Positions 17,924-51,410 of a stretch of DNA of 64,000 nt are shown in pieces. The translations under genes and the position numbers were made by a program. Position 1 is the stretch's first letter. Each line of letters starts with the position of its first letter. The stretch is from a virus: IMG/VR virus record IMGVR_UViG_3300008516_000159; one strand, written 5' to 3'. Below the pieces are notes generated by a model. The model saw only the letters and a program-made list of their open reading frames with translations, was not told where the DNA came from and made no database searches.

Positions 17924-17945
17924 TCAATATTCCATGACATATAAT

Positions 17946-18297
17946 TGGAGCCGGGGAGGTTCGAACTCCCGTCCCTCGAATATTCACTTTGAAACACTAC
18001 ATGCTTAGCCCTGCTGCGGGATTCGGTTATTAATTCACAGGACGAAACGTCATAACCTAGCCTAACTTGTTTTTCGCTTTTGAATCGGTATTGGCTTCGG
18101 TTCAAATAGCATAGTCTCCGTTTCTGACGCCCTATTTCTCACCAGAGACAATAAGAAATAGAACGGCTGCTTAATTAAGCAGCAAGTGCAAGTGTTTCGT
18201 TAGCAACTATAGTTTGAATGGTCTTTTAAAGAGCCTTACCAAACTCTGCATGCGTCTCAAAGATCATCATCCCAGGTCGAATCCAAATGTCGGCCCC
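17946..18297 (-). ncRNA. ssrA: tmRNA, tag (A)ANETLALAA
   Basis: GGGGCCG...GGAUUCGAC 5' end, G3-U70 acceptor, T arm GGGAGUUCGAACCUCCC, tag GCTAACGAAACACTTGCACTTGCTGCT TAA. Confidence 0.97.
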
Positions 18298-20642: not shown

Positions 20643-20875
20643 CGTTTGAAGAAGTCCTTGATAAATGTTTGTTTGGTGCCTTTTGTCCAAAAGGCGGGAT
20701 CCGTTATGTCTTTGAGAGGAAAGTCAGTTACCATATGATATATCTTGCCTCCTCTTCTAAAATCTACAGCGTCTATATCGAAGCTTCCCGATCTTTTTTG
20801 TCTTATGATACTATGAAGCGCAATTGTTCTTGACGGTGTCGTTGAGCCAAAATCATAATATAGTTCTAATGCCAT
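20636..20875 (-). CDS. Small protein, C-terminal helix family
   Basis: KGTKQTFIKDFF tail. Confidence 0.7.
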   Translation of the reverse strand: MALELYYDFGSTTPSRTIALHSIIRQKRSGSFDIDAVDFRRGGKIYHMVTDFPLKDITDPAFWTKGTKQTFIKDFFKRW

Positions 20876-24863: not shown

Positions 24864-24935
24864 AGCCCCTACTCGGATTCGAACCGAGATAAGATGGTTT
24901 TAGAAACCACCGCCTAACCATTCGGCCATAGGGAC
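24864..24935 (-). tRNA. Amber suppressor tRNA (anticodon CUA), U73
   Basis: Cloverleaf: GUGGU UU-CUA-AA ACCAU, T arm CUCGG UUCGAAU CCGAG. Confidence 0.88.
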
Positions 24936-36449: not shown

Positions 36450-36761
36450 TTAGACCTTATCAACCGCATCGGCGATTTTTTTATAATATTCCTGCATCTT
36501 TTCAAAAGATTCCTTGTCTAGATACTGACAGCTTAGAAAAGTCGGCATTCCGTTTATTGCCACAGGGCACGCCTTGTTTATGTATTCAAAGATCAAGAAA
36601 GGCTTATTTTTGTTAAATTGTTTTCGAGCCTTTTTGTCCATAAAAGCAAGAGGCATGAATATGTGATCTATGAAAGATTTATTCTCGCACTGCTTGTCGG
36701 TGAAAACCTCGCCCGAATAAATGTCAAGAGCGAGCTGTTTTAGTTCCTCGTTGCTTCTCAT
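36450..36761 (-). CDS. Conserved phage hypothetical protein
   Basis: IFMPLAF...FEYINKACP.AING.PTF.SC.YL. Confidence 0.75.
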   Translation of the reverse strand: MRSNEELKQLALDIYSGEVFTDKQCENKSFIDHIFMPLAFMDKKARKQFNKNKPFLIFEYINKACPVAINGMPTFLSCQYLDKESFEKMQEYYKKIADAVDKV

Positions 36762-36955
36762 TTTCTCACCTCTATTTGTTGATCTCTTTTATAAGAGACA
36801 CAACCTTTAAATCGATCTACATTAATTTTTAGGCCGCCTGCATTATTTATTGTACACCAGTTCGCGAACGCCGCGTAATATTTGCAAGTTGAACAGACAG
36901 AATGAACACTGTCACTTACCAATAAACGTTTGGCTTCTTGAGCTTTATGATTCAA
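36758..36955 (-). CDS. KAKxLL/Cys4 small protein
   Basis: Likely TTG start; EAKRLL..CSTCKY..C..C. Confidence 0.65.
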   Translation of the reverse strand: MNHKAQEAKRLLVSDSVHSVCSTCKYYAAFANWCTINNAGGLKINVDRFKGCVSYKRDQQIEVRK

Positions 36956-36967
36956 TTTAATTCCTTT

Positions 36968-37041
36968 TGGGCCAGGAGGGAATCGAACCCCCAACTCCTT
37001 GATTAAAAGTCAAGTACGCTGCCTAGTTGCGTCACTGACCC
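36968..37041 (-). tRNA. tRNA-Lys(UUU)
   Basis: Loop CU-UUU-AA. Confidence 0.9.
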
Positions 37042-38050: not shown

Positions 38051-38269
38051 TTAAGACATATTCACATAATGCTTGTATTTCGGAGGATGTTTTTTCTCCC
38101 AATCGAGGCAGCCAAATTTATCAGGTAGATCTATGATTTTAAAGCTATATAGACCGCACACAGGCTCATCTATATACTTTTGGCGTTCGCTACTTCTTAT
38201 GAACCAGTGACAGTCTACACAGACGTTACCGATCAGAAGTTGTTTGGCTTTTTCTGTTTTCGTTGTCAT
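38051..38269 (-). CDS. KAKxLL/Cys4 small protein
   Basis: EKAKQLLIGNVCVDCHWF..C..CLDW. Confidence 0.75.
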   Translation of the reverse strand: MTTKTEKAKQLLIGNVCVDCHWFIRSSERQKYIDEPVCGLYSFKIIDLPDKFGCLDWEKKHPPKYKHYVNMS

Positions 38270-38411
38270 CACAATACGATGGTTCATAATATTTGCAAGC
38301 TGGAACAGTCTCTGGATCATATATGATCCCACCATCAACTTCACATAAGTGAAAATGATGTGGTGTTCCTGCGCATTTTAGACAAGTTATGCACGTCTTT
38401 TTATCGTTCAT
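38226..38411 (-). CDS. Cys4 small protein
   Basis: CITCLKC..C..CKYY. Confidence 0.65.
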   Translation of the reverse strand: MNDKKTCITCLKCAGTPHHFHLCEVDGGIIYDPETVPACKYYEPSYCDDNENRKSQTTSDR

Positions 38412-39105: not shown

Positions 39106-39318
39106 TCAACGAGGCCGCCGCGCGTCGTTAAGCTCAACAGCACGCCAACGAGTAATCTTTCGCCAATGCTCACATGTTCTCACTAGTGGCAATCTTAGGT
39201 TTTTTGACTCAGGCCTAAACCTATAACATTTTCCCGTAGCATCAAACCAATAACAATTTTCACAAACCTTACCGATTAATAAGCTTTTAGCTCTTATCGC
39301 TTTATGAATTTTTCGCAT
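39106..39318 (-). CDS. KAKxLL/Cys4 small protein
   Basis: RAKSLLIGKVCENCYWF..C..CEHW. Confidence 0.75.
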   Translation of the reverse strand: MRKIHKAIRAKSLLIGKVCENCYWFDATGKCYRFRPESKNLRLPLVRTCEHWRKITRWRAVELNDARRPR

Positions 39319-39527: not shown

Positions 39528-39599
39528 TAGGCCCTGAGGGAATTGAACCCCCGGCACCTAGATTAAGAGTCTAGTGTTCTTCCGCTGAACTAAGGGCCC
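39528..39599 (-). tRNA. tRNA-Lys(CUU)
   Basis: Loop CU-CUU-AA. Confidence 0.9.
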
Positions 39600-40024
39600 G
39601 GTATAACTGAGTAATCTTCAGCCAAATGAACTCTCTGTTGTTGATTGTTCTTAGCTGGTTCTACTCTTAATGATATATTATCACCAGAAAAATCTACTAT
39701 AGGTATAAAATATAACCTTTTATTATTTGGACAATAAACGACAACCAAATCAATTTCATCTTTTCTGGCTGGTCTCCTCCGCTTTCCTTGGTAAGGTCCT
39801 GAACTACTTATATCAACAAGCAACGCTCCATTGGTTTTTTTCCCTTCGCGAATAGAAATATATTTTACTTGGACTCTTAAACACTTTCCGTTCTTATACG
39901 CAATAAAGTCAAATGGCAAATGCTCGCTTATTGTTGTAAAAATATAGTATCCACTTTCCGCAAAAGACAATTGAGCTTTGTAGACGGCCAAATCTCCTTT
40001 ATCTGCAGTAGGGTGTTTATTCAT
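39590..40024 (-). CDS. PD-(D/E)XK endonuclease, I-Ssp6803I-like
   Basis: KGDLA...PFDFI...RVQVK...ID.VVVYCP...LYFIP; stop inside tRNA-Lys. Confidence 0.88.
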   Translation of the reverse strand: MNKHPTADKGDLAVYKAQLSFAESGYYIFTTISEHLPFDFIAYKNGKCLRVQVKYISIREGKKTNGALLVDISSSGPYQGKRRRPARKDEIDLVVVYCPNNKRLYFIPIVDFSGDNISLRVEPAKNNQQQRVHLAEDYSVIPGP

Positions 40025-40218
40025 TAAGAGCCCCTATTTTCAAAACGCTCACAATACTTTGGCATTTCGATTATTTCGCCAGTCTTGTCACAATAATATT
40101 TATTTAAAGCAAATGATACATTTCTCCATATGCAAGACTCGCAGTTTTCATTCTTGAGAATATGTTTTGCAACTTTAGACTTGTTCACTTTTACCTGTCC
40201 AAAATTCACACGTGCCAA
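40024..40218 (-). CDS. KAKxLL/Cys4 small protein
   Basis: VAKHILKNENCESCIW..C..CERF. Confidence 0.7.
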   Translation of the reverse strand: MARVNFGQVKVNKSKVAKHILKNENCESCIWRNVSFALNKYYCDKTGEIIEMPKYCERFENRGS

Positions 40219-40390
40219 ATGTAGGCCTCTGCTTCATATCGTGAGTGTGATTTTTTTCCGGCCAAGCGTAATGAGACTGATCTCTACACCAGCTTTTAAA
40301 AGAGATGCCTTCGTAGTCAAGACATTCCTGGCATTTATGGCCAGTTAATAAATGTTTGGCTATTTTTGCTATTTTTTTAATTGCTATCAC
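40175..40390 (-). CDS. KAKxLL/Cys4 small protein
   Basis: IAKHLLTGHKCQECL..C..CEFW. Confidence 0.7.
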   Translation of the reverse strand: MIAIKKIAKIAKHLLTGHKCQECLDYEGISFKSWCRDQSHYAWPEKNHTHDMKQRPTFGTCEFWTGKSEQV

Positions 40391-40830: not shown

Positions 40831-41277
40831 CTAGGACACTGGTGTGAATCTCCCCTGTTTACTTAGATCCCTCCTTTCATAAGCCCATTTGGAGCGACAG
40901 GATTTCGAACAAAACGTGTTTGTAATTCCTCTTTTCATCCTCTTGCGATGATCTCGCTCTAATCTTTCAAACCGCATGCCGCATTCGTTGCACACGAGAG
41001 TGATTTGTGGAGATTTTCGCGGCCGAGGACGGTTGCGCTTTCTGTGGCTAAAAGCGATATTATCCAAATCAAAGAAAAGTTCGATTGGATCCTTGCTGTG
41101 TAGCCACGGCACCTTATGTTCTATACTCAACTCATCGGCGCCTTCAATCCTCTTTCCGCATCGAAAACAAACATCTTCTCCCAAACGTCGAACCATATTG
41201 AACAACAACATTTTTTTCAGTTTGGAGGCGGCAGTTGTGTGGCTCACACCCAACTGTTCTTTTTTGGAGTCACTCAT
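40831..41277 (-). CDS. HNH-family endonuclease with C-terminal Zn finger
   Basis: CFRCG..SIEHKVPW..LDNIAFSH..N; CNECG..FCSKSC. Confidence 0.78.
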   Translation of the reverse strand: MSDSKKEQLGVSHTTAASKLKKMLLFNMVRRLGEDVCFRCGKRIEGADELSIEHKVPWLHSKDPIELFFDLDNIAFSHRKRNRPRPRKSPQITLVCNECGMRFERLERDHRKRMKRGITNTFCSKSCRSKWAYERRDLSKQGRFTPVS

Positions 41278-41297: not shown

Positions 41298-41550
41298 ATA
41301 ATAGCTCTCATAACCTGGATTCTGATTAAATCTACATCTATCTCAGCCTTAGACTGGCCCTTGCGAGCTGCCCGCTACCCGCTCATCATGATGCCACTTA
41401 CGCATTAGAGCTGCTTGCGGTCGCACGGTAGATCGCCATAGCGATCTTTATGAGTGGTAAAACGGCTTGTGGCCTCCCACACTAAGTGGACCGTGTCCAG
41501 AGTTTTCTCTACATATTGTGAAATATGCAGCGTAGATCCGGAGCTATTAT
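41298..41550 (-). ncRNA. rnpB: RNase P RNA, minimal (253 nt)
   Basis: P1 AUAAUAGCUC/GAGCUAUUAU; P2 AUCUAC/GUAGAU; P3 hairpin; CR-I GAGAAAACUCUGG and CR-V CAGAAUCCAGGUUA form P4 with bulged U; L15 GGGUA; CR-IV AGAUAGAUG. Confidence 0.87.
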
Positions 41551-41551
41551 T

Positions 41552-41623
41552 TAGGCCGAGCGGGATTCGAACCCAGCATTGAGCGGTTATAAGCCGCCGA
41601 GTCTACCATTGACTTACCGGCCC
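41552..41623 (-). tRNA. tRNA-Ile(UAU)
   Basis: Loop CU-UAU-AA. Confidence 0.9.
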
Positions 41624-41677: not shown

Positions 41678-41706
41678 AGTATACCAAGCAATCCTAAAAT
41701 TGTAAA
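41678..41706 (-). promoter_or_regulatory. sigma70-type promoter upstream of tRNA-Ile(UAU) and rnpB
   Basis: TTTACA-N17-TATACT. Confidence 0.75.
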
Positions 41707-41729: not shown

Positions 41730-41903
41730 CTATATCTCCATAGCCGATTCATCGATACAACTAGCACAGAGCCAATGTTTAGTATAATCACCATACATGT
41801 CGGCAGCATATGGATCTTCAGTGTATTCTGCGTTAGGATTGCCACACCTTTCGCAGGGTTTGGATAATAAAAGCTCTTTTGCTTTTTCGGCCTTTTGTTT
41901 CAC
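41730..41903 (-). CDS. KAKELLL Zn-finger paralog (not in ORF track)
   Basis: GTG start; KAEKAKELLLSKPCERCG..EDPY..KHWLCASC. Confidence 0.75.
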   Translation of the reverse strand: MKQKAEKAKELLLSKPCERCGNPNAEYTEDPYAADMYGDYTKHWLCASCIDESAMEI

Positions 41904-42127
41904 GTGTTAACCCCCTGTGATAACGCGAACCATTTTGAAAGATCTCTGTCTGTTGGAATTGCCACATCTAATTCTTCGAGACAATTGTAGCAAAGCCAAT
42001 GTTTATCATGGTTATCGAACATCTCAGCATCATACGGATCTTCAACGTATATTGCGTCAGCGTTGCCACACCTGTCACAAGGTTTAGATAACAAAAGCTC
42101 TTTTGCTTTTTTGGTCTTTTCTTTCAT
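41900..42127 (-). CDS. KAKELLL Zn-finger paralog
   Basis: KAKELLLSKPCDRCG..EDPY..KHWLCYNC. Confidence 0.8.
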   Translation of the reverse strand: MKEKTKKAKELLLSKPCDRCGNADAIYVEDPYDAEMFDNHDKHWLCYNCLEELDVAIPTDRDLSKWFALSQGVNT

Positions 42128-42138
42128 GACATTATCTA

Positions 42139-42300
42139 TTACGCGTCAACTGAAACACATTTATCACAAAGCCAATGTTTAGTGTGATAACCGTTGGCCA
42201 GAAGAAATGGATCTTCAACTTTCGTAGCGTTAGGGTTGCCACACCTTTCACACGGCTTGGATAATAAAAGCTCTTTTGCTTTTTCGGTTTTTTCTTTCAT
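42139..42300 (-). CDS. KAKELLL Zn-finger paralog
   Basis: KAKELLLSKPCERCG..EDPF..KHWLCDKC. Confidence 0.8.
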   Translation of the reverse strand: MKEKTEKAKELLLSKPCERCGNPNATKVEDPFLLANGYHTKHWLCDKCVSVDA

Positions 42301-42316
42301 GGCATTATCTATGTCT

Positions 42317-42402
42317 CGGAGACGCGGGGATTCGAACCCCGAACCCGCTTCCGCGAGCACCTGTCTTCCAAACAGGCCGACTACCAGTTATCACACGTCT
42401 CC
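42317..42402 (-). tRNA. tRNA-Ser(GGA)
   Basis: Loop UU-GGA-AG, long arm, G73. Confidence 0.92.
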
Positions 42403-42415
42403 CTGTGTCCTTCAT

Positions 42416-42643
42416 TCAGCATCTATTATTGGCTAGCACTATTTCAAGTCTACAGGCTCGACACACACTCAATATGGTACCGTCTTCTAATCGTTCCCAA
42501 CCAAAGTATTTACACATATACCTTCTTGGATAATAATGCCCACATATTTCACACTTGTATTTCCTTCTCCTCATTTTAGCGCACTCTTCACAACAGTACC
42601 TGGATAATAAAAAATCCTTTGCTTTTTTGGTCTTTTTCTTCAC
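42416..42643 (-). CDS. KAKxLL Zn-finger protein
   Basis: KAKDFLL; CEICG..CRAC. Confidence 0.7.
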   Translation of the reverse strand: MKKKTKKAKDFLLSRYCCEECAKMRRRKYKCEICGHYYPRRYMCKYFGWERLEDGTILSVCRACRLEIVLANNRC

Positions 42644-43595: not shown

Positions 43596-43683
43596 CGGAG
43601 AGCTAGAGATTCGAACTCTAAAAGCAACAATTGTCGCTTTACTGCTTTTCGAAAGCAGCTCCTCATCCAACCGGATGCCCTCC
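43596..43683 (-). tRNA. tRNA-Ser(CGA)
   Basis: Loop UU-CGA-AA, long arm, G73. Confidence 0.9.
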
Positions 43684-44082
43684 ATTATATTTCTCGTAGT
43701 ATTTTTTTCGATATCTATTATAATTATTATTACAACCCCTATTTCTACCTGCAAATGTAGTTGTTTGGCTATTACAGTTAGAACAAATAAGTCTCAAATT
43801 ATTTTTGCTGTGATTTATATTATTTCCGTCAATATGATCCAATACAAATATAAGATCTTTGTTGTTCCAAACATTTTCCATTCCACATATGGCGCATTGA
43901 TTATTCTGTTCACTTAATAGATATCGTCTGATCCAAATACCAGGCTTTTTAGATGTTGCTCCACTTTTTAGCCATTCTATAATATATATTTCTTCGCGAT
44001 GTCTTCTACTACAGCTGTCACAACATTCGCTGTTGCTGTAAATCTTTCTTCCACAATTACAAATTTTATTCTTTTGTGGCAT
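43663..44082 (-). CDS. HNH endonuclease
   Basis: CAICG..LDHIDGN..N..NLRLICSNCNSQT; stop inside tRNA-Ser. Confidence 0.9.
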   Translation of the reverse strand: MPQKNKICNCGRKIYSNSECCDSCSRRHREEIYIIEWLKSGATSKKPGIWIRRYLLSEQNNQCAICGMENVWNNKDLIFVLDHIDGNNINHSKNNLRLICSNCNSQTTTFAGRNRGCNNNYNRYRKKYYEKYNGGHPVG

Positions 44083-45110: not shown

Positions 45111-45196
45111 CGGAAGGCCGGGGATTCGAACCCCGAAGCCACTTGCGCGACCAACAGATTAGCAATCTGTCCGACTACCAATTATCGCAGCCTTCC
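45111..45196 (-). tRNA. tRNA-Ser(GCU)
   Basis: Loop UU-GCU-AA, long arm with GCAA loop. Confidence 0.92.
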
Positions 45197-45600
45197 AAAA
45201 ATTCCTTATAAAAAGGCCTCTCGTTAGATTTCTTTTTTTTAGCTTCCAACACTCTTATAGAAAAATAATGCTCACAACTGCCGTCTAAGTGTTTTTTTGA
45301 AATATACAACACTTTATCTACATCTGGAACATATACTGCCCAACCATCTATTAAATCCATGTCTATAGCCACTTCTTTGCTATTTACAACATTGTAAAAA
45401 GGTATATGAATCAAACCTTCCCAGCCTTTTCTATTAACCGATCTATACTTCACTTGCAGTCTTACGGTCTTTGATCCTTTGACCGCAATCAGATCAACAG
45501 AGGAATAATCTCCGAATGGCAAGAAGATTTCGTAACCTCTATCGATTAAATCGTCAATTACTTTAGTTAAGCCTTTTACGCCCTTTTCGTTTGTGTTCAC
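45175..45600 (-). CDS. PD-(D/E)XK endonuclease, I-Ssp6803I-like
   Basis: EKG...PFGDYSSVDLI...RLQVKY..ID.WAVY.P; stop inside tRNA-Ser. Confidence 0.88.
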   Translation of the reverse strand: MNTNEKGVKGLTKVIDDLIDRGYEIFLPFGDYSSVDLIAVKGSKTVRLQVKYRSVNRKGWEGLIHIPFYNVVNSKEVAIDMDLIDGWAVYVPDVDKVLYISKKHLDGSCEHYFSIRVLEAKKKKSNERPFYKEFLEGCDNW

Positions 45601-50541: not shown

Positions 50542-50580
50542 AAAAAAAAAATATAAAGCCTGAGACTAGAGCTCTATATG
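50542..50580 (-). terminator. Intrinsic terminator closing the large ncRNA
   Basis: AUAUAGAGC...GCUUUAUAU followed by U-run. Confidence 0.65.
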
Positions 50581-51410
50581 TTAACCCTTTCATTCCCTTA
50601 CGGTTTGGGTGCTATCCAAACCTTAGGAACTTATCCACCGATCCAGGACCGGTAGGTTAACACAGCTGCTTTTTTATACTGGTAGCGGTTCCAGTGTCGC
50701 ACTGAATCACTCGGCTATCTGGGTACCGTCAGCCTTGCGAGCTGTAAAGAGGCGCTAACCTCACCGTGCTCCTTTCAACCAACCTTCCGCCGCCTTGCGA
50801 GCCTTGGAAAGTCCATATTCCCCGAAGGGTACGGAGTTGAGCTGCTTTCATCCAGCACCGGGTCAGTCTTTGCAGATATTCCAACGTATCGGAATCGAAC
50901 CGATCACATTATGCTCCTCAAGGCATACGCTCTACCAAACTGAGCTAACATTGATAAAACGGGTCACCCCGCGGCAACACCGTGCTAACCCACCAGTTTC
51001 ATAGGCTTTTGGCCTACGGAATGCCGGACGGTGCTTGTCTTTCCCTTGCCAGGTACTGAACGGTTTTTCAAGATCGATGTGCTCCCAACGCATACCGTTG
51101 GGCGGATATGCCCACCAACCTATCAAACTGCTATGAGGCGCTCACTTGCGAGGCTCGCACAACATAACTACTGTTCACTCTCCTGTTTGACCGATTTTGG
51201 TTGCAAGTAATCGATTTCCAGTCGAAAGAAATAATGCCAGTGTTACCCACATCATTTCCTGTCCTTGCTCGGCGTCCACACAAGCTCCGCGAGGACCGCG
51301 AAGCCATTGGAGTGTCAGCTTGCTTGAATTGACCATCCGAAGATGGCGACGGTCGCCAACCCGCCTTTACAGTCCTTGCGAACTGCTGTCAATGTCAAGC
51401 CACTATATAC
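50579..51410 (-). ncRNA. Large ornate ncRNA, GOLLD-like, with embedded tRNA
   Basis: About 830 nt GC-rich, no credible ORF, over 10 hairpins with GCAA/UUCG loops, long-range GUUAACC/GGUUAAC, own promoter motif and terminator. Confidence 0.7.
50880..50954 (-). tRNA. Embedded tRNA-like domain with 8-nt anticodon loop (CUUGAGGA)
   Basis: D arm GCUC AGUUUGGUA GAGC; stem UAUGC/GCAUA; T arm AUCGG UUCGAUU CCGAU. Confidence 0.75.

Follow-up and report, generated by a model that had tools for sequence, protein, structure and literature searches.

We describe an RNase P-like RNA of 253 nt, encoded on the minus strand (41550->41298) of a 64,000-nt stretch of DNA, hereafter the window, from a huge uncultured phage. 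RNase P RNA, a ribozyme universal among cells, trims tRNA precursors at their front end. The phage RNA is probably a type-A-derived RNase P RNA that has lost most of its specificity domain and acts, with the RnpA protein of the host, on the pre-tRNAs of the phage. The catalytic domain is kept: P1-P5, in which the P4 pseudoknot retains its bulged U, then J5/15, P15-P17, L15 with its GGU, a P18-like hairpin, and the joiners J18/2 and J2/4. What has been lost, judging from the sequence, is the part that reads the tRNA elbow (P10-P14, CR-II and CR-III), which is replaced by a short conserved element and two small hairpins. Homology, conservation of the fold and genomic placement are matters of observation; expression, catalysis and the protein partner are predicted.

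The RNA sits in an array of 42 tRNA genes (covering every specificity) and a tmRNA, as counted by ARAGORN, and a GOLLD RNA, all encoded on one strand; an Rfam scan of the window returned 40 matches to the tRNA model together with the tmRNA and the GOLLD RNA. Genes for HNH, PD-(D/E)XK and endonuclease VII proteins lie between the tRNA genes, many small ORFs match PHROG families, and no ORF longer than 42 aa overlaps the RNA itself. An earlier note, made from the letters of this DNA, had reported more than 40 tRNAs and a tmRNA, an RNA beginning 1 nt after tRNA-Ile(UAU), and a tRNA-Trp with an encoded CCA that abuts tRNA-Pro with no spacer. All of this holds: tRNA-Ile(UAU) ends at 41552, leaving 0-1 nt between its discriminator and the RNA. 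The sigma70 promoter of the same note fares less evenly; the site TTTACA-17-TATACT is present and matches the consensus at 10/12 positions, yet the region gives 2 such sites against 1.2 expected, and the one at 41706-41678 is neither statistically distinctive nor above chance for the region. The features of the RNA and its surroundings are collected in Table 1.

Table 1. Features of the RNase P-like RNA and of the array around it, in window coordinates; RNA position p corresponds to window coordinate 41551-p.
Feature	Coordinates	Strand	Remarks
Whole RNase P-like RNA	41298..41550	-	253 nt; 255 nt if A41551/U41297 extend P1
P1	41541..41550 / 41298..41307	-	RNA 1-10/244-253, 10 Watson-Crick pairs; 11 bp with 41551/41297
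P2	41532..41539 / 41328..41335	-	RNA 12-19/216-223, 8 bp including 2 G-U
P3 hairpin	41509..41530	-	RNA 21-29/34-42, 9 bp, loop UCAC
CR-I = J3/4 (AGAA) + P4 5' strand AAC-U-CUGGA	41496..41508	-	bulged U50
P5 (CACGGU/ACCGUG)	41490..41495 / 41424..41429	-	RNA 56-61/122-127, 6 bp
Specificity-domain remnant	41430..41489	-	RNA 62-121
J5/15 (CGA)	41421..41423	-	E. coli CAA; G at the A248 position, A249 kept
P15 (CCGC/GCGG), P16 (GCUC/GAGC), P17 hairpin, conserved AUGAUG, L15	41372..41420	-	
L15 GGGUA	41376-41380	-	RNA 171-175, 3' side of the P15/P16 loop; E. coli equivalent 291-295
GCAA-capped 4-bp hairpin	41357..41368	-	RNA 183-194
P18-like hairpin CAGUC-UAA-GGCUG	41344..41356	-	
J18/2 (AGAUAGAU)	41336..41343	-	E. 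coli AGAUGAAU
J2/4 (AAUCAGA) + CR-V / P4 3' strand UCCAGGUU, then AU	41310..41327	-	
tRNA-Ile(UAU)	41552..41623	-	directly upstream of the RNase P-like RNA
Promoter-like site TTTACA-17-TATACT	41678..41706	-	TG before the -10 element; consensus match only
HNH endonuclease gene	40831..41277	-	20 nt downstream of the RNase P-like RNA; Pfam HNH, E=3e-6
Free-standing HNH and PD-(D/E)XK genes in the array	40831-41277, 39590-40024, 43663-44082, 45175-45600	-	Pfam
Cysteine-rich protein genes, first four	36758-36994, 38051-38344, 39106-39318, 40175-40390	-	
Cysteine-rich protein genes, last four	41730-41903, 41900-42127, 42139-42360, 42416-42643	-	
GOLLD RNA	50557-51036	-	Rfam 155.7 bits, E=1e-41
tRNA-like gene	50880-50954		embedded in the GOLLD RNA
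tRNA with anticodon CUA	24864-24935	-	ARAGORN label Pyl
tmRNA	17943-18297	-	Rfam 140.9 bits

Every pairing that the earlier note had listed for a phage RNase P-like RNA is present, and the E. coli strings which it had quoted are correct: the annotated MG1655 rnpB has GAGGAAAGUCCGGGC at 61, ACAGAACCCGGCUUAU at 347 and GGGUAGGCUGC at 291. In P4, AAC(U)CUGGA pairs with UCCAGGUU over 8 bp, the bulged U being kept as U50 and two pairs being compensated relative to E. coli, as the note had said; against the E. coli CR-I sequence GAGGAAAGUCCGG, that of the window differs by G64->A in addition to these two compensated pairs. The joiners AGAUAGAU and AAUCAGAA are present, and J18/2 and J2/4 are E. coli-like. 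The minimum-free-energy fold regains P1, P2, P3 and the hairpins, with a z-score of -3.08. Substitutions that are rare in the core comprise the A for G at E. coli position 64, found otherwise only in the relative L062, a G at the A248 position and a U for A at the start of CR-V; the GCGAC at J5/15 recurs in L134, L062, L131 and L035. Hairpins equivalent to the GCAA-capped one are GNRA hairpins with different stems in L134, L062, L014 and L111, and the P18-like position is occupied by CAGC/GCUG or CAGGC/GCCUG in L134, L062 and L010.

No motif of CR-II or CR-III, which together with P10-P12 read the T-loop, is found in RNA 62-121. This remnant is made up of a CUUAGU motif, a GUGG 71-74/CCAC 94-97 helix, GAG, a linker CGUUUUA and hairpins at 77-87 and 105-120; candidate local hairpins are CCAC/GUGG (62-74), GGC/GCC (77-87) and GAUCGC/GCGAUC (105-120), so that the GUGG could pair either locally (62-74) or at long range (71-74/94-97). 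P10-P14 are gone, as the earlier note had said, and a short conserved element with two small hairpins stands in their place. Some of the helix names that the note had used in this reduced domain (P7, P8, P9) find no support in the relatives. The helix which it called P7 (CACGGU/ACCGUG) is better read as P5, and the local P8 (CCAC/GUGG), which uses the same GUGG as the long-range helix, was rejected as it is not conserved in the relatives; covariation favours GUGG 71-74/CCAC 94-97.

Direct database searches with the window copy were negative. There was no Rfam RNase P match at the gathering threshold (a curated 100 bits for RF00010), nor at E<=10 on either 551 nt or 281 nt, and none to the models of RNase P clan CL00002, type T and archaeal models included; blastn of the RNA against 50,697 GenBank phage records found no match, and a pattern with the exact P4 sequence gave 0 matches in IMG/VR. 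Neighbouring genes were of limited help in finding relatives. An adjacent RNase HII gene, used as a synteny marker in IMG/VR, led to none, and a neighbouring 134-aa protein has 78 homologs whose gene neighbourhoods differ, of which the only useful ones were contigs of the same phage: the RNA is identical in L002 and has one change in L003, C132U, which keeps the P15 pair as G-U.

Relatives were gathered instead with a CR-I...CR-V pattern written from features common to E. coli and the window, with two P4 pairs set to N, no pairing required of them, and a gap of 155-185 nt. The pattern matches once in the window and in 0/100 shuffles. It identified 12 contigs in IMG/VR, to which longer gaps added 8 and shorter gaps 8, and elsewhere 116 metagenome stretches and 22 MAG contigs. 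The two free P4 pairs are both standard, and a perfect closing P1 (5-13 bp) is present, in 131/139 distinct sequences; five sequences with a non-complementary P4 pair have no other RNase P feature, and this is roughly the small number of random matches expected. Members of the family assembled here, for which no published definition was found, are marked by CR-I and CR-V 60-220 nt apart, complementary P4 strands, a closing P1 and the helices of the type A catalytic domain, all of which the window copy has. A scan with a gap of 93-123 nt gave 0 matches, and one with a gap of 62-92 nt gave two RNAs of ~150 nt with the catalytic domain only. These lie on the + strand of IMG/VR contigs (L175:9754-9867 and L176:9010-9124); P5 is closed directly by an 8-nt loop, with no specificity domain, and a tRNA follows a few bases downstream. 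The MAG contigs (L153-L174) carry similarly shortened type A RNase P RNAs, mostly with no tRNA array nearby. Several are labelled as candidate-phyla-radiation (CPR) bacteria (Shapirobacteria, Dojkabacteria, Patescibacteria); L168 is on a 949-kb Shapirobacteria scaffold, and further examples are L162, L163, L164, L171 and L172. The MAG copies are probably the cells' own reduced rnpB genes, and could be either the source of the phage copies or a case of parallel reduction.

That the relatives belong to the RNase P family can be stated with confidence. Full-length matches to RF00010 were obtained for L011 (84.5 bits, E=2e-26), L010 (70.7 bits, E=9e-22) and L015 (66.1 bits, E=3e-20), the specificity domain being skipped in the alignments of the latter two. 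All 20 of the further members tested match an Rfam RNase P model, with E from 6e-56 to 3e-6, the best model being RF00010 in 18 and RF00373 in 2. Their scores lie between 34 and 178 bits and only 2/20 reach the 100-bit gathering score, as does none of the first ten loci. Motifs like CR-II/CR-III are kept in L011, L022, L024, L028 and L062 and are absent in others, as they are in the window. On these scores there is no statistical doubt that the relatives are RNase P class A homologs; read from its sequences, the RNA family spans from nearly complete to core-only molecules, with the window copy at the sequence-diverged end, as the most diverged of the members seen.

The membership of the window copy was examined with models from which it had been left out. 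An nhmmer profile of 130 relatives finds 41526-41298(-) with E=1.6e-11, the only significant match in 64 kb. Such profile tests are partly circular, and because the pattern that gathered the family had been designed partly on the window, the search was repeated with the pattern anchors removed; the window locus was again the only match reported (E=2.5e-4). The covariance model CM R1, made from five distant relatives and a nested structure supplied by hand, has as its top match exactly 41298-41550(-), full length, at 23.9 bits and E=3e-4, the next match being at E=0.27. On E. coli rnpB this narrow model finds the CR-V end only (E=0.028) and does not recover the full gene; for this reason the link to RNase P rests on the scores of the Rfam models against the family. 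The nhmmer family profiles skip the specificity-domain part of the window, and nhmmer also aligns the remnant to the GCUUAAGGUGGGAG...UACCAC element of the relatives. A second CR-I-like string in the window, GAGAGGAAAGUCAG at 20713-20727 (+), has neither a CR-V partner nor flanking helices and scores E=4.6; it was set aside as a chance match.

Conservation of the fold was measured on the CM R1 alignment of 70 sequences, P4 being added as a pseudoknot outside the structure of the model. Cells are paired in 95.6% of cases; shuffling lowers this to 63.8% and sliding the partners to 33-43%. Covariation scores 0.61 on the real alignment, 0.14 after shuffling and <=0.073 after sliding. Compensatory changes on both sides occur in 10/10 helices, including the unmodelled P4, which is 98% paired with three covarying pairs (GC/CG/UG, CG/AU/GC/UA and AU/GC/CG/UA). 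Across the family all 9/9 modelled pairs of P1 and 6/6 of P2 covary, P2 being 98.5% paired; P3 varies in length and its base pairs covary, and the inner 4 pairs of P5 (helix 5) are 98.5% paired and covarying. For the remnant of the specificity domain, the homologous helix of the relatives covaries (helices 6-7). The long-range helix 7 of the family, of the GGUGG/CCACC type, has a conserved GCUUAAGG before it and GAG with a variable hairpin after it, and nhmmer aligns the window's GUGG 71-74/CCAC 94-97 with it. In a MAFFT alignment of 18 3' halves that included the window, P15 is 98.3% and P16 98.6% paired, with covariation of 0.74 against 0.17 in shuffles, and P17 was also confirmed on an alignment including the window. 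With full-length sequences, MAFFT and RNAalifold misaligned the variable P3 and could not show P4, because P4 crosses P2; the hand-given structure and the covariance-model alignment were used instead.

The earlier note had named two observations that, taken together, would speak against an RNase P RNA, namely the lack of a covariance-model match and the lack of P4 covariation in homologs. Rfam does miss the window copy, and P4 covaries in 131 relatives. The interpretation as RNase P is supported by the relatives being class A homologs, by the recovery of the locus with a window-free covariance model and profile HMMs, and by its placement in a tRNA array.

This placement is the rule for the family, and most of the relatives are in the arrays of viral contigs. 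At least one tRNA lies within 2 kb of the RNA in 102 of the 158 family loci, at least three in 77 and at least five in 54; a tRNA ends <=10 nt upstream in 32 loci and starts <=10 nt downstream in 53. The relatives with the same placement as the window copy are IMG/VR viral contigs, two of which have direct terminal repeats. A gene for the protein partner, RnpA (PF00825), was not found among the 110 window ORFs of 85-210 aa, nor in five huge-phage records carrying the RNA, three of them >=90% complete, by a search that found it in 10/14 reference genomes. Given this negative result, the RNA would have to act with a protein from the host or on its own.

From this arrangement a course of events can be proposed. 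The RNA would be transcribed together with tRNA-Ile(UAU), possibly from the promoter-like site, and the cut maturing tRNA-Ile(UAU) at its 3' end would leave the RNA with its 5' end. It would then bind the RnpA of the host, a partner which we infer because no phage rnpA was found, and would cleave the 5' leaders of ~42 phage pre-tRNAs and of the pre-tmRNA, including the junction between tRNA-Trp(CCA) and tRNA-Pro, where the lack of a spacer means that one RNase P cut would finish both tRNA ends. The phage would thereby have its own supply of a tRNA-maturing catalyst during infection. A CCA is encoded in 1/42 of the window tRNA genes, that for tRNA-Trp, which tRNA-Pro abuts directly; because the other 41/42 lack it, CCA would have to be added before the GGU of L15 could make contact with it. 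These 41 all have A as the first base after the discriminator, and the last base of the leader (-1) is A in most window tRNA genes; this shared A after the discriminator and at -1 looks like a common processing signal.

Resemblance by chance, or an unrelated structured RNA with two short motifs in common with RNase P by accident, can be given almost no credence. The silence of Rfam for the window copy and of blastn against the GenBank phages would fit it, and it is contradicted by the significant and unique matches obtained with window-free models and by helices in register with a covarying RNase P family whose E-values go down to 6e-56. The contig might instead be cellular and the RNA the ordinary chromosomal rnpB of a bacterium with a small genome, such as a member of the CPR, and we regard this as very improbable. 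It is true that the pattern also finds reduced RNase P RNAs in MAGs, several of them CPR-labelled and one on a 949-kb scaffold, that none of the MAG matches listed has a tRNA array nearby, and that no structural phage gene was identified within the 64-kb window. Set against a cellular origin are the 42 tRNA genes of every specificity with a tmRNA and a GOLLD RNA on one strand, the interspersed HNH, PD-(D/E)XK and endonuclease VII genes and PHROG-matching small ORFs, the viral (IMG/VR) contigs, two with direct terminal repeats, on which the same placement recurs, and the absence of 16S and 23S rRNA from the window in the Rfam scan.

A more serious contender, though still an unlikely one, is that the RNA descends from RNase P but has ceased to cleave tRNA and persists for some other task: it might titrate host RnpA and so depress host tRNA maturation, act on the polycistronic tRNA transcript as chaperone or scaffold, or cleave a different substrate. 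The window copy falls below Rfam detection, carries G64->A and A248->G at normally conserved core positions, and lacks the specificity domain; no phage RnpA was found, and some organellar RNase P RNAs are reported to be functionally defective (PMC4264200). Against this, purifying selection has kept all the helices and joiners of the catalytic core in 70-131 relatives, with compensatory changes, and neither the bulged U, nor the AAA of J3/4-P4, nor the GGU of L15 has been altered; an RnpA decoy would not need P15-P17 or L15, and the G64->A change recurs in L062, which still matches RF00010 with E=4e-13.

Among known RNAs the closest comparison is with E. coli M1 RNA (rnpB, RF00010), with which the phage RNA shares P1-P2-P3, P4 and its bulged U, the CR-I and CR-V sequences and J5/15, together with P15-P16-P17 with L15 GGGUA, a P18-like hairpin and J18/2 of the form AGAU(A/G)(G/A)AU, all checked on the annotated gene. 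It differs in being 253 rather than 377 nt long, without P10-P14 and CR-II/CR-III, and in a GNRA hairpin added before P18, the changes G64->A and A248->G, and the two compensated P4 pairs; it is also below any Rfam threshold, and lies in a phage tRNA array rather than a cell chromosome. The type T RNase P RNAs belong to an archaeal lineage and have archaeal protein partners. Those of Pyrobaculum and its relatives are natural RNAs without most of the specificity domain (PMC13462272). Both they and the phage RNAs are thus natural molecules of similar size reduced essentially to the catalytic domain, but the phage RNAs clearly descend from bacterial type A and the window copy has no match to any model of the RNase P clan; by this analogy, the window RNA is like type T in its mode, that is, in doing without a specificity domain, and is not a type T member.

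A mechanistic precedent is provided by an engineered construct: the catalytic domain of the E. coli RNA alone cleaves substrates, with reduced efficiency (PMC5839562). The natural type T enzymes of archaea are a second precedent (PMC13462272). In contrast to the engineered construct, the phage RNAs are natural and conserved, and keep a small replacement element, GCUUAAGG...GGGAG. Plastid and mitochondrial RNase P RNAs, some of them reportedly defective in function as RNA alone, offer a further parallel in being bacterial-type RNAs which lost peripheral elements in a small genome (PMC4264200); their genomic setting differs.

Full-text searches, of incomplete coverage and hence amounting to absence of evidence, did not turn up any account of an RNase P RNA encoded by a virus. 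The passages of a 2024 historical review of RNase P in which phages are discussed mention no virus-encoded copy, the term RNase P is absent from a comparative overview of jumbo phages and from a survey of huge phages, and the paper on the RNase P gene finder Bcheck describes no RNase P RNA encoded by a virus. The RNase P ribozyme itself is known; what varies here is type A descent without a specificity domain, encoded by phages within tRNA arrays and scoring below the curated threshold.

A broader reading, which we put forward tentatively and as a whole, is that large phages carry bacterial-type RNase P ribozymes of ~150 to ~300 nt which work without a specificity domain; that these RNAs may be punched out of the tRNA-array transcript by the very tRNA-end cuts which they help to make; that phage tRNA maturation may thus be independent of host rnpB, with host RnpA or possibly no protein; and that the lineage of the window may have shifted its substrate rules, with G at 248 and leaders that mostly have A at -1. 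If all this is true, the ribozyme joins the translation-related functions encoded by viruses, and these RNAs are natural minimal RNase P enzymes. A conserved natural family without the elbow-reading domain bears on the question of the minimal RNA for accurate pre-tRNA cleavage, on how the cleavage site is chosen without a specificity domain, and on why phages with large tRNA arrays invest in a processing catalyst of their own. In practical terms, the curated Rfam threshold misses most such genes (2/20 pass) and the window copy wholly.

Several other features of the array deserve mention. A family of small cysteine-rich proteins of 57-97 aa, with a motif like KAKELLLSKPCxRCGN ... HWLC..C, is encoded between the tRNA genes, and four of these genes stand one after another immediately upstream of tRNA-Ile(UAU). 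On a related viral contig, a group I intron (L012:7420-7637, + strand; Rfam 76.5 bits) lies a few kb from the tRNA array. The GOLLD RNA in the array of the window contains an embedded tRNA-like gene, for which ARAGORN reads a four-base anticodon (tgag), and the tmRNA encodes the tag peptide ANETLALAA according to the same program. The tRNA with anticodon CUA is an amber suppressor, a hint that TAG may be read in some of the phage's genes.
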